A stretch of 64,000 nt of DNA, taken from the NCBI RefSeq assembly GCF_018350175.1, contig NC_058374.1, positions 78,678,001 through 78,742,000 on the forward strand, in the 5' to 3' direction. Each line of letters starts with the position of its first letter. The first letter of the stretch is position 1. The notes under the pieces were generated by a model. That model saw nothing but the letters and a program-made list of their open reading frames with translations, searched no databases and had not been told where the DNA came from. A program made the translations under genes and the position numbers. Positions 13,267 through 33,600 of this stretch are shown piece after piece. The DNA is from Felis catus. Its lineage: Eukaryota.

Positions 13267-16200
13267 CTAACATTTGCGGCAGCTGCTGGCGCAGGACCCC
13301 ACGCCGCAGGAGCTGATGCCGCAGGAGCCCACACCGCCGGTGCCCAGGCCGCAAGACGTGACGGAGTTGCAGGGGCCGCAGGGCGCGCACATTCCGGTGC
13401 TCACTGCCAGGTTCCCGCTGCAGGGGGCGCTGCACGCGCTGCCGGTCACCGGCCGCGAGCCGGACACGCAGAGGTCCCCGCAGACGACCCCGCCCCGGGA
13501 GCTGCTGACGCCTGCAAAACCCAAAGGCTCATGAGATTTCTGGGGTGGGATGGGGGGCGAGCCATCAGCCTCCCAGATGATGCAGATCCCCCGGCCCTGA
13601 GCACTGTGTATTAAAGTCAGGAGAATCGTTACTTACACCGCTAGGCCCAAAGCTGTGGTCTTTCCTGCTTTCTGACCCCCAATCCCTCCTGCTGTGATGC
13701 CAGCCCACTTTATGATATTTAGCTTTCAGTGGAACCCCACCCTCCAGACCCTGCTACCCCTTATAGGAAGGGAATAAATCCATCCACACAGGGGCTGTGT
13801 TACTCACAGACATTCACGGCCCCAACGCCTTCACATAGTCTAGAGGGAAGAAGAAAAAGGCAACATGAGTGACTCATCCAGACTTTCGGATAGAGCTCCC
13901 CCACACCTTGGGGCAGGGTCCACAAGTGGTCAGCGTGGAAGCAGAGGGTCTGAGGGAACAGCCCTCCCAAACCACCCCTGTCCCCAAAGTGATGAATAAG
14001 AGGTTTTCCTAGACCACTGGCCATTGCTGAGACAGAAGAAAGGATGGAGTGTATTCAAGGGGGCAGGAATGGGCAACTCAGAGCCAGNNNNNNNNNNNNN
14101 NNNNNNNNNNNNNNNNNNNNNNNNNNNNNNNNNNNNNNNNNNNNNNNNNNNNNNNNNNNNNNNNNNNNNNNNNNNNNNNNNNNNNNNNNNNNNNNNNNNN
14201 NNNNNNNNNNNNNNNNNNNNNNNNNNNNNNNNNNNNNNNNNNNNNNNNNNNNNNNNNNNNNNNNNNNNNNNNNNNNCCTCTCCCTGCTGCTCAGCCTGGG
14301 TCACCGCGGTCTCCAGCTTGGTGTTCTGGGGCCCAGGAGAGAACAAAGTGGGTTATGGTCCTGGGTGTCTCGGTCCATTTCCCTCATGTGTCCAGTCTCT
14401 CCCCTCCCGCAGCTGGGGACACCCCAAGAACAGGCCTCTCCCCTTCATTAACGGAGTCCCCCTGAGGGACCACAACCAGGGACATGAGTCCTGCAAATGG
14501 GCTGGGTCATGAATGGCGAGAGCCAGTCGGGGCACACACTGCCTGTGCGGCCCTGGGGAGGCCCCAGGTGACCCGTACCTGACACTTGGCATTCTCGACC
14601 TCGGCGGTCAGCCTCTGGATCATGCGGTTCAGCTCGTTGATCTCCTCCTTGGTGCGGCGCAGGGTCTCCCCGTGCCGGATCACCGTGGCCTTCATCTCCT
14701 CGCACTGGGGGGAAGCAGAGGTGCTCCTGAGGCTCAGGATGCAGTTTCCCTCCCATTCAGACACCACAGATGGTTGGGAGGTTGTACAGTGCTCAGCCTG
14801 TGCAACTATACATGGCAGCCCTGCCCAATAACTATAACCTAAGAGCTCTCTGCCCTTCTGTCACCATCCCTAGGGATCAGAAACCCCATACAGAAGAGGC
14901 CTTGTTAAGTGTATACCGGGCTTCCCTCGTGCTGTCATGTCTAGGAGACAGGTGTCCTGTGCCCCTCACCTTGCTGCGGTACCAGGACTCGGCCTCAGCC
15001 CGGCTGCGGCTGGCGATGTCGTCGTACTGAGCCTTGATCTCGGCCACAATGCAGTCCATGTTCAGGTCCCGGCTGTTGTCCATCTTAACGATGACTGAAG
15101 TGTCTGAGATGTGGGCGTGGAGAACGCGGATCTCCTGCAGATGGTGGGGAACCTGTTTACACCCCAGCCTCACCCACCACAGTGTGGACCCAGTCTTCTC
15201 AGCCTTACCTGGTCTCTACCCCAACTCCCACTACAGCCTCATGGACTGCAGCCCCCACCCAACCCAAATCCCTGGCCAATCAGTCCCAGGCCCCAGCCCC
15301 CTCTTCTAGGCTGGCTGCTTCTTTTCGACCTGGACCACGGCCCCTCACCTCCTCATACAGGCGCCGCAGGAAGTTGATCTCCTCGATCAGGGCTTCCGCG
15401 TTGGCCTCCAGATCTGACTTGCGGAGGTAGGCACAGTCCACATCCTGGAAAAATGGGGTGTCTGTGAGCTCAGAGGACCCCGGTGCTCATTACCCCAAAC
15501 ACTCCCCTCTCTTCTCTCCCATTCGTGGAGGCCAAGGGAAAGGACTCCCACTCTTCTATTCCCATGCCGTCGCCATACTTTCTGACCTGCCTGGGGTGGG
15601 CTTTGCAACCTCCTGCCCTTCTGAGAGCAAACCCCTTTGTGCCTGAGATGGGCCGCCAGCCTTTCTCTCCTCTTATGGTCCCAGCTCTGCTTCTTACCCT
15701 CCCTATCCCAACAAGCCTGCCAGACTGACTCCCTGCTCGCCACCTCGACCCCTCCCTGTCCCCTGGCAGTCCTCCAAGACCACCTGGTCACTCCGGGTTC
15801 AGCTCCATCCTCCCCAATACCCGGGGACTGGGCCCCTCCTGTTGGTCAGACTTGCCCCAGTGCTAGACAGGACGCTGTCCCTCAACAGAGAGACTGGAGC
15901 TGCCCTGCCTCCATGGGGTCCCCGCCAGAGACCACAAGTTCTAAAGCACAGTGGGACATCCGCCGGTCAGCCCAGCCATCCCTCGCCCCAGGGCAGGGTG
16001 CTAGTGCACAGTCCAAGGTTCTTGCCCTTCATCGGTGACCTGAATGAGCCTTCCATGACCTGACCCCTGGGATTTCCCAGCCCGATTGGGCCAGGTCGTG
16101 TGCCCCACGCGGAGGTTGAGACCCTCTGGTCTCCCCAGGAAGAGTCTGTCATTCCGAGATCCCTGGTGTCTGTGCTTCCGGATCCCACGTCACTCACCTT

Positions 16201-30600: not shown

Positions 30601-33600
30601 GGAGGCCCTGATCGAGGAGATCAACTTCCTGCGGCGCCTGTATGAGGAGGTGAGGGGCCGTGGTCCAGGTCGAAAAGAAGCAGCCAGCCTAGAAGAGGGG
30701 GCTGGGGCCTGGGACTGATTGGCCAGGGATTTGGGTTGGGTGGGGGCTGCAGTCCATGAGGCTGTAGTGGGAGCTGGGGTGGAGACCAGGTAAGGGCTGA
30801 GATGACTGGGTCCACACTGTTGTGGGTGAGGCTGGGGTGTAAACACGTTCCCCACCATCTGCAGGAGATCCGCGTTCTCAATGCCCACATCTCAGACACC
30901 TCGGTCATCGTCAAGATGGACAACAGCCGGGACCTGAACATGGACTGCATTGTGGCCGAGATCAAGGCTCAGTATGACGACATCGCCAGCCGCAGCCGGG
31001 CTGAGGCTGAGTCCTGGTACCGCAGCAAGGTGAGGGGCACAGGACACCTGTCTCAGACATGACAGCACAGGGAAGCCAAGTATTTATTAAGAAGGCCTCT
31101 TTTGTCTGGAGTTTCTCATCCCGTGGGATAGTAACAGAATGGCACACAGCTCTCAAGTTATAATCGCTGGGCAGGGCTGCCATGTATAGTTGCACAGGCT
31201 GAGCACTGTACAACCTACCAACCATCTGTAGTGTCTGAATGGGAGGGAAACTGCATCCTGAGCTCAGGAGCACCTCTGCTTCCCCCCAGTGCGAGGAGAT
31301 GAAGGCCACGGTGATCCGGCACGGGGAGACCCTGCGCCGCACCAAGGAGGAGATCAACGAGCTGAACCGCATGATCCAGAGGCTGACCGCCGAGGTCGAG
31401 AATGCCAAGTGTCAGGTACGGGTCGCCTGGGGCCTCCCCAGGGCCGCACAGGCAGTGTGTGCCCCGACTGGCTCTCGCCATTCATGATCCAGCCCATTTG
31501 CAGGACTCATGTCCCTGGTTGTGGTCCCTCAGGAGGACTCCGTTAATGAAGGGGAGAGGCCTGTTCTTGGGGTGTCCCCAGCTGGGGGAGGGGAGAGACT
31601 GGACACATGAGGGAAATGGACCGAGACACCCAGGACCATAACCCACTTTGTTCTCTCCTGGGCCCCAGAACACCAAGCTGGAGACCGCGGTGACCCAGGC
31701 TGAGCAGCAGGGCGAGGNNNNNNNNNNNNNNNNNNNNNNNNNNNNNNNNNNNNNNNNNNNNNNNNNNNNNNNNNNNNNNNNNNNNNNNNNNNNNNNNNNN
31801 NNNNNNNNNNNNNNNNNNNNNNNNNNNNNNNNNNNNNNNNNNNNNNNNNNNNNNNNNNNNNNNNNNNNNNNNNNNNNNNNNNNNNNNNNNNNNNNNNNNN
31901 NNNNNNNNNTCTCTCCCAGCCCTGCCTGGGTTCCCAGCGTGCCATGTGCCCTCTGGCATCACTGGACTCCCATGTCCAAATCTCCCCATCCTGCATCTTT
32001 ACAGGTAATTTGAGAAAGTCCTTTCAGTTTGTTTCTAGCCTCCTTTGAGTCAGTCATCCCACTTCTGTGCTCATATGAGATTGGTATTTTTGCAAATCTG
32101 CCTTTCAGAGCCAGGAGTCAGGCCCTAGTAATTGTTTTCCCGAGAATCCTAGTCTGGGCTTTCAGCCACCCTCTCTTGAACGTGTCTTTCCCCTCCTGGC
32201 CTTGGTTGCACATAATCCAGCATCCAGCTTTTGTCTCAAGGCTGGCCTTGGCCCCATTCGGGAGTTCGTATTTATCCTGTAATGACTGACTCAGTGGGGG
32301 ATTTTATCAACTCACAGTTATGTGTTGTAAGCACAGTGGGCCGCCCTAAGTGGTTGTCCATTGCAGTAGGTGGGGCGGAAGGTGGACAGATAGCAGGGGC
32401 CTGTCCCTTGAGGCAGCGGTGTCCTGCTTTAGGCGTTTTTGCTTTTTGCTAGTGTTGGAGGTGGCAGGGCTGGAGGGCGGCTGACCATTTCCTAGGTATA
32501 CAACACTCCCAGAATGTTGCCCCTGGGTTGGTCAGGGAAGTTTCATTAGCGGACAATTCCGCAGTGAAGAGTATCTTAAGATTGAGTTTGGAAGGCCTGA
32601 CGTTAGCTTTGGAAACTGAGAAGTCCAGCCCTCCACCACATAGGGCTCGTGGGGGCGGGGAACTCAGAAGCTTTGGTGTGGATCCTCTATGAACCCTGGG
32701 CATGGGGTGAGTAGGTGGTGGACTGCAAAAATTCTCCCCACACCTGAAGCTGACTTTGTCAACCGTTTGCCATGGTGCAACCAGAGGGACTCCCGTTCCC
32801 TTTCCTTAAGGAGTCGCGTTGTGTGGGAAGGGAATGAGGGTTGAGTGGAGTTAGGTGGCCCAAATTATAGCCTTGCCTCTATCACCGGTTATTTCCTCTC
32901 CCTGGGCCTCGCTTTCTCCACCCGTCAAATGAAGGAACTCATGGAGACAGCCTGTTCTAAATGGGCCCTAAAATCCCATTCATTCATGCGACAGTTGTTT
33001 ATTGGCCGAACACTGTTAGGCACTGTCGATTCTTCAGTGGGGAAAAGACAGGACAAAATGTTCTGCCCTCTTGAGGCCCACGTTCTAGTGACCGCAGTCA
33101 GACCAGATTTAGGAATTTAAATCTGCACTTCCTCGAATGCGTTTACAAGTCAATCGGAACCAACAGCAATCATAGCAGCCGACAGGTCTGAACTGCTCAC
33201 CACGTGGCAGGCACGGAGCCCTTACGCGGGTCCCTGGATTCCACCCTCACAGGGGATCTAAGAGTAGATACTCCCGATCAGGAGGCAGGTGGATTGGAGG
33301 GCAGGGCAAATCTGAGGTTGCTAGCCAGCCAGGCGCACTGGGCATTCTGTCTCCAGAGCCCTCGTGGCGGCTGGGCTTCCCGATTGGCGCGTTTATAGCC
33401 CCTTCCCCAAAACAAGTGCCCAGAAGGAGGGCACGGACCTCGCTGTCGCCTCTGGCGCATGACACCGACCTCTCTCTTTTCCTTTCCCAACAGGCTGTGC
33501 GAGGGCGTCGGCGCTGTGAATGTCTGTAAGTAGCTCTTCCCTTCCCGTCTGCTCCCGTCAGGGGGGCCCCAAGCCTTCTGGGAGGGGCGTGTTCGCGACC

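Follow-up and report, generated by a model that had tools for sequence, protein, structure and literature searches.

Gene conversion probably shared by KRT81, KRT86 and KRT83 in a head-to-head hair keratin pair of the cat, and the conserved pairing of heads and tails across mammals

We analysed a stretch of 64,000 nucleotides of Felis catus (NCBI RefSeq assembly GCF_018350175.1, contig NC_058374.1, positions 78,678,001 to 78,742,000 of the forward strand; hereafter the window), which contains the hair keratin genes KRT81, KRT86 and KRT83. Based on the comparison of their sequences, KRT81 and KRT86 are probably an old head-to-head pair in which the region from codon 9 to exon 7 has been overwritten by repeated gene conversion, with KRT83 taking part, while the heads and tails have remained distinct and the orientation of the spacer between the two genes has been mostly stable. 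The identity of KRT81 and KRT86, its patchiness, the three-way mosaic with KRT83 and the conserved pairing of heads and tails in protein models are all observed directly.

Structure and identity of the inverted repeat

The left arm of the inverted repeat comprises KRT81 from codon 9 to exon 7 (positions 14277 to 18344, reverse strand) and the right arm the same part of KRT86 (27653 to 31717, forward strand). Two pairs of inverted blocks are found by self-BLAST: 14277-17023 vs 31717-28974 at 97.2% identity and 17152-18383 vs 28845-27614 at 98.7%. The global alignment of the visible arms spans 3,944 columns, of which 73 are substitutions and 11 are gaps (97.9% identity, 2.1% divergence); no perfect run exceeds 330 bp. 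An earlier note on this DNA had described near-identical inverted arms around a spacer of 9,308 bp, which self-BLAST, a repeat search and the global alignment confirm. The intron lengths that it gave, the three amino-acid differences visible inside the arms (T/A, T/S, H/N) and an inner edge near codon 9 are also upheld, but the outer ends that it placed at 14277 and 31717 are mere edges of runs of N which hide both ends; the true ends lie somewhere in exon 7 or in the first ~20 bp of intron 7.

The introns follow the exons in this identity. The lengths of introns 1 to 6 differ between KRT81 and KRT86 by 0, 0, 1, 1, 5 and 0 bp, respectively. Introns 1, 3, 4 and 6 are 97-99.6% identical (3, 8, 5 and 4 mismatches), the visible part of intron 2 has 16 mismatches, and intron 5 has 24 mismatches and 5 gap columns. 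Intron 7 measures 265 bp vs 1,604 bp in the KRT81/KRT86 pair. Introns 7 and 8 align no better than shuffled sequences, and the promoters, at 59%, hardly better. Judged against these parts of the same two genes outside the arms, the identity of the arms is far beyond chance.

The spacer (18345 to 27652; 9,308 bp, GC content 0.465) holds both start codons and both promoters. The identity ends on this side at codon 9, and the three codons before it form an island specific to each gene: codons 6-8 of KRT86 read YCA (27644 to 27652, forward strand), whereas KRT81 has GFC at 18345 to 18353. No keratin-like coding match is found in the spacer, and there are no Rfam matches in positions 11000 to 50000, which include it. 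Of the words sampled from the spacer, and from the spacer only, 97-98% are present in 20 public runs from 8 studies. A copy of an interspersed repeat of ~215 bp lies within it at 21616 to 21830 and is 98.6% identical to a copy at 4329 to 4542, among many older copies. It is likely a young carnivore short interspersed element (SINE), a family assignment which we presume, and it is a possible marker of spacer orientation.

In detail the near-identity is patchy. The first 1,193 bp of the arm contain 6 differences (0.5%), compared with 52 (2.0%) in the other 2,630 bp outside a patch in intron 5 (Fisher p 0.0003). That patch, of 120 bp, holds 25 of the 83 difference events in the arms, where the maximum over 5,000 permutations is 13. 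The patchiness also bears on a very unlikely explanation of the near-identity, namely that it is partly or wholly an artefact of assembly, through collapsed reads or reference-guided fill. The runs of N are located in the most repeated exons, the first 1.2 kb of the arm is four times more identical than the rest, and KRT86 of the window carries A15, as its KRT81 does, where all seven other felid KRT86 rows have M15. However, the 83 differences are scattered and even the longest perfect run is short, and the same closeness of the paralogues is seen in the proteins of 28 other species. The arms also retain residues typical of each gene (N251 in KRT86, as in six of seven felid rows and in the bear, and H251 in KRT81), which makes an artefact unlikely for the whole arm.

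Synonymous sites distinguish between conversion and selection on the protein. Within the arms, 9 synonymous differences are found in 314 codons. In exon 8 and the first 14 codons of exon 9, KRT81 and KRT86 encode the same protein, yet 13 of 24 codons differ synonymously. An identical protein without identity of the DNA indicates strong selection on the protein, and would be an argument for purifying selection on the keratin rod as the sole reason why the two genes are alike. We consider this extremely improbable: synonymous differences are few inside the arms but frequent just outside them, and selection on the rod cannot account for their loss or for the 98-99.6% identity of long introns, so that intron and synonymous identity together refute it as the only cause. 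Since the tracts take in whole introns, conversion mediated by complementary DNA is rejected as well. The GC content is 0.60 in the arm introns, 0.525 in introns 7 and 8, and 0.565 in introns 1-4 of KRT83; this contrast is no more than suggestive of GC-biased conversion.

KRT83 as a third partner

KRT81 and KRT86 were previously described as a homogenised pair; this is correct, but they are not alone, as KRT83 takes part too, which had been missed. In a three-way alignment over exon 5 and intron 5 of KRT86 (30880 to 31230, forward strand; densest patch 31054 to 31167), 33 of 36 variable columns join KRT81 and KRT83 against KRT86. The divergent patch of intron 5 thus exists because KRT81 matches KRT83 there. 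The block of KRT83 from exon 5 to exon 7 (43033 to 43886, reverse strand) is 97.4% identical to KRT81 at 14277 to 15138, in direct orientation, and 93.6% identical to KRT86, in inverted orientation. The direct repeat with KRT81 is 862 bp long, its copies are 28.7 kb apart and its longest perfect run is 320 bp; unequal crossover between them would delete or duplicate KRT86 and create a KRT83-KRT81 hybrid, and deletions that remove KRT86 are predicted.

The remaining KRT83 tracts, all on the reverse strand, are found in other exons. The exon 2 tract (45808 to 46028) equals KRT86 28737-28957 in 221 of 221 bases, and the flanking introns are unrelated. The exon 1 tract (47522 to 47887) is 98.4% identical to both KRT81 and KRT86 and takes in ~30 bp of intron 1 as well. 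The beginning of exon 9 (41529 to 41669, 141 bp) is 97.2% identical to KRT81 13374-13514. The short exons 3, 4 and 8 of KRT83 are just 75-89% identical. Over 70 exon 2 codons and 42 exon 6 codons, KRT86 and KRT83 do not differ, as against 12 synonymous differences in 20 codons of exon 3. From these comparisons, KRT81 appears to be a mosaic of tracts of different ages.

Core and tail trees across mammals

We retrieved 493 proteins. From these, 29 species with full-length models of both KRT81 and KRT86 were picked by hand, the window included; the set omits species with a single gene and mismatched models without a partner. In the protein core, the distance between paralogues is smaller than the mean distance between orthologues in all 29 species pairs, and the core tree needs 25 changes of gene label. 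The tail tree, built with FastTree, splits KRT81 from KRT86 with one label change (support 83, on few columns; none of 500 shuffles was as low), and the tails form gene-specific groups across placentals and marsupials. In these 29 protein pairs, therefore, grouping follows the lineage in the core and the gene in the tail. Some core residues are shared in concert by both genes of a lineage: D237 in Panthera, T80 and S353 in Lynx, and V52 and N62 in the gray whale. A15, which KRT86 of the window shares with its KRT81 and not with the other felid KRT86 rows, is a further case.

The disagreement of the two trees, with tails grouping by gene, excludes a recent inverted duplication in the cat lineage as the source of both arms. 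The identity of 97.9%, introns included, is what such a duplication would leave, but the gene-specific tails, the poor alignment of promoters and of introns 7 and 8, and the fact that both genes are intact outside the arms all speak against it; the tail tree refutes it, and we attach almost no probability to it. The earlier preference for gene conversion over recent duplication is thus borne out by the synonymous and intron identity, the mosaic tracts and the discordant core and tail trees. As in interlocus conversion elsewhere, the paralogues are older than the species, neutral sites are homogenised, and the tracts have sharp edges and changing donors.

Two positions show a reversal of states between the genes. 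At position 423 (exon 8), 14 of the 29 pairs have A in KRT81 and S in KRT86, and four ruminants show the opposite arrangement; at position 281, too, the arrangement in ruminants is the opposite of that in elephants/armadillo. These reversals could stem from independent single substitutions or from an ancient reciprocal exchange.

Orientation of the spacer

The earlier note had proposed that the repeat is a potentially invertible switch between promoters and tails. The geometry holds: exons 1-7 are equal in length in the two genes (two ends inferred), and a crossover in the arms would therefore leave both genes in frame. An inverted allele is not seen: we typed head and tail in all 493 proteins, and of the 214 models with a KRT81 or KRT86 type at both, 200 (81 plus 119) are matched and no reciprocal pair is found. 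Eight of the mismatched models have a KRT81 head and a KRT86 tail, and six a KRT86 head and a KRT81 tail.

That crossover between the arms inverts the spacer, and that the flipped form segregates or is fixed in some mammals, is in our judgement unlikely, although several observations favour it. The arms are in register and head-to-head, at the identity given above over 3,944 columns. The accessible parts of two sources provide precedents: CTRB1/CTRB2 carries a 16.6-kb inversion which exchanges the promoter, exon 1 and intron 1 (PMC6145291), and human inversions between inverted repeats mostly recur (PMC6748972). Among the mismatched models, that of the snow leopard (P0009) is KRT81-like at residues 6-8, 11, 15 and 251 and KRT86-like in the tail, that of Francois' langur (P0251) joins a KRT81 head to a KRT86 tail, and that of Reeves's muntjac (P0208) joins a KRT86 head to a KRT81 tail. 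The KRT81 partner of the first two and the KRT86 partner of the third are not among the matches listed (the best 120 of 328, of 128 and of 126 in homologue searches, and up to 15 members per cluster in three cluster look-ups), and the same applies to the partner genes of the mismatched gorilla and franciscana models.

Against a flip, reciprocal hybrids are expected in one haplotype, and none is found among the 214 typed models. In four discordant species both genes are represented among the proteins (gray whale, blue whale, narwhal and Colobus), and each species has a single type of head on the two, which is a one-way pattern: the KRT81 head in the two whales, the KRT86 head in narwhal and Colobus. 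In 28 of the 29 pairs, positions 6 and 7 of the head differ between the two genes and stay with the gene that they mark. H251 is also found in cheetah KRT86, so residue 251 can move by conversion alone, and the snow leopard model is compatible with a flip, with a long conversion and with a misjoin. Chimeric gene models also occur: gorilla KRT87 models bear a KRT81 head as well, and for this reason the gorilla and narwhal chimeras (UniRef-only models) are given little weight. We take the human KRT81/KRT86 locus to lie near 52 Mb of chromosome 12. Table S1 of PMC10150506 (44 sample columns) has 8 rows for chromosome 12, none of them near 52 Mb, and KRT81, KRT83 and KRT86 are not mentioned in the supplements of that paper or in the readable supplementary files of PMC10172114. 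Finally, according to the part of PMC8327919 available, about 50% of primate X palindrome spacers are inverted between species, in contrast to the kept KRT81/KRT86 pairing. A spacer which flips at a low rate, with the flipped form purged in most mammals and retained, as a fixed or a segregating state, in a few (the snow leopard, Francois' langur and Reeves's muntjac), is likewise a reading that we regard as doubtful.

A change of head is found in baleen whales, of which five species carry a KRT81 head on KRT86 (P0056, P0058, P0062, P0404 and P0407). Gray whale and blue whale have it on both genes, which we read as a one-way copy; both gray whale models list a longest contig of equal size. Toothed whales such as the vaquita and a beaked whale retain the KRT86 head on KRT86. 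On this evidence from protein models, the ancestor of baleen whales likely lost the KRT86 head through a one-way conversion that spanned the start codon.

Evidence against conversion with stable orientation

Several points weigh against old genes overwritten by repeated conversion under a mostly stable orientation. Part of the identity, above all the 0.5% divergence of the first 1.2 kb, could be assembly consensus. The 29 pairs were hand-picked from the 493 proteins, and the assignment of opossum KRT81 is unsure. The paralogue is nearer than the nearest orthologues of other species in just 15 of the 29 pairs (2 ties, 12 not), and horses, elephants and goat/bighorn group by gene in the core; from the former count, conversion would be slower than recent speciation in some lineages. 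The 14 mismatched models come from 12 species in about 8 lineages, and 8 of these species are without a partner of typed tail among the matches listed. In the part of PMC5540548 that could be consulted, a significant signal of conversion is reported in just 3 of 19 gene groups.

Proposed course of conversion

The repair route and the reason for the stable orientation are what we infer from the patterns above. Repair without crossover between neighbouring copies, on a single chromatid or on sister chromatids, would produce tracts of a few hundred bases. These tracts would stop where homology has decayed, in the 5' untranslated region, intron 7 and most KRT83 introns. With homology decayed in most of its introns, KRT83 would share mainly the long exons and the exon 5-7 block, and its short exons 3, 4 and 8 would escape. 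The outcome would be a single shared rod domain under three promoters and with three tails, in which the promoters, codons 6-8 and tails of KRT81 and KRT86 remain distinct. The orientation may be stable because crossovers are rare (the arms are 4 kb long and 98% identical, with a longest perfect run of 330 bp) or because flipped alleles are removed by selection.

Comparison with known systems

That K81, K83 and K86 (and also K87) evolve in concert in mammals has already been reported at the coding level (PMC4195889, PMC5540548). The passages of these papers that were available rest on gene trees, and a map of intron tracts, the inverted geometry, the split of head and tail, and the whale head swap are absent from them. 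PMC12523852 draws no link between KRT81, KRT86 and gene conversion. In a search which covered few subscription journals, neither an inversion nor a map of intron tracts was found described for KRT81/KRT86; older papers on human hair keratins may describe the intron identity.

Three systems resemble the present one, to judge from the portions of the sources seen. CTRB1/CTRB2 (HsInv0030, 16.6 kb) are head-to-head paralogues of similar size and ~97% identity, in which a crossover swaps the promoter and 5' end and two intact hybrid genes result (PMC6145291, PMC6748972). Both orientations are genotyped there and change the ratio of expression, whereas KRT81/KRT86 is known here in one orientation, and an exchange would alter the head-tail pairing of the mature protein. 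The yeast flip/flop region has two gene-bearing inverted repeats of ~4 kb which have been continually homogenised over millions of years; unlike the conserved KRT81/KRT86 pairing, both orientations exist in each species (PMC9731477). In primate X-chromosome palindromes, conversion runs from arm to arm and the arms are closer within than between species, but arm divergence is <0.2% and the spacers have often inverted between species (PMC8327919). KRT81/KRT86 differs from them by its 2.1% divergence, arms of 4 kb, a third donor and stable pairing. With that divergence, and with pairing kept in 28 of 29 pairs, it does not belong to the large palindromes of the sex-chromosome type.

Gene models and neighbouring exons

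The three genes are type II hair keratins, named by their protein matches, and each was modelled with 9 exons from splice sites and translation. KRT81 lies at 13267 to 18368 on the reverse strand (507 codons, ATG at 18368); its tail is 91-95% identical to the top mammalian Hb1/KRT81 matches among the matches listed. KRT86 lies at 27629 to 33817 on the forward strand (479 codons, ATG at 27629); its exon 9 peptide is 100% identical to two felid models, and felid Hb6 proteins likewise have 479 amino acids. KRT83 lies at 41479 to 47934 on the reverse strand (493 codons, ATG at 47934) and matches the felid proteins P0292 and P0293, of 493 amino acids. Four runs of N lie inside coding exons of these genes, and exon and intron lengths stay in register. 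In each of the three genes they mask most of exon 7, and in KRT81 alone part of exon 2 as well; exon ends which fall in them were inferred from the exon lengths of the partner gene.

Parts of two other keratin genes are found on the forward strand. Two exons with open frames, like exon 6 and exon 7 of a type II keratin, lie at 3786-3911 and ~5730-5950, and no further exons of this gene were found within 1-13200. The first is 65% identical to an extra N-terminal exon of human KRT86 isoform X1 (P0246); presumably the gene is KRT88. An open exon 1 of a further hair keratin lies at 61718-62143, with a KRT85-like head and with its 3' 200 bp 90% identical to exon 1 of KRT81, KRT86 and KRT83; we take this gene to be KRT89.

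Significance

The three genes are a clear worked example of a known process. What is new is that each gene is marked by no more than three head codons and its tail, that the head-tail pairing has persisted through placentals and marsupials although the layout could be inverted, and that the KRT86 head of baleen whales was likely lost by a one-way copy. Conversion would explain the difficulty of assembling, mapping and naming KRT81, KRT83 and KRT86. If a flip were true, each cortex-keratin tail would be made under the promoter and head of the other gene, a natural swap in a pair of structural genes of hair, and the locus could serve to measure selection on orientation across the mammal tree. 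A flip proven in the snow leopard or the langur would be a CTRB-like switch in a structural gene pair. With conversion among the three genes, a change that arises in the rod domain of one can pass to the others, which bears on variants of hair-shaft disease (these being monilethrix genes, according to the sources as far as seen) and on the genetics of coat and wool.

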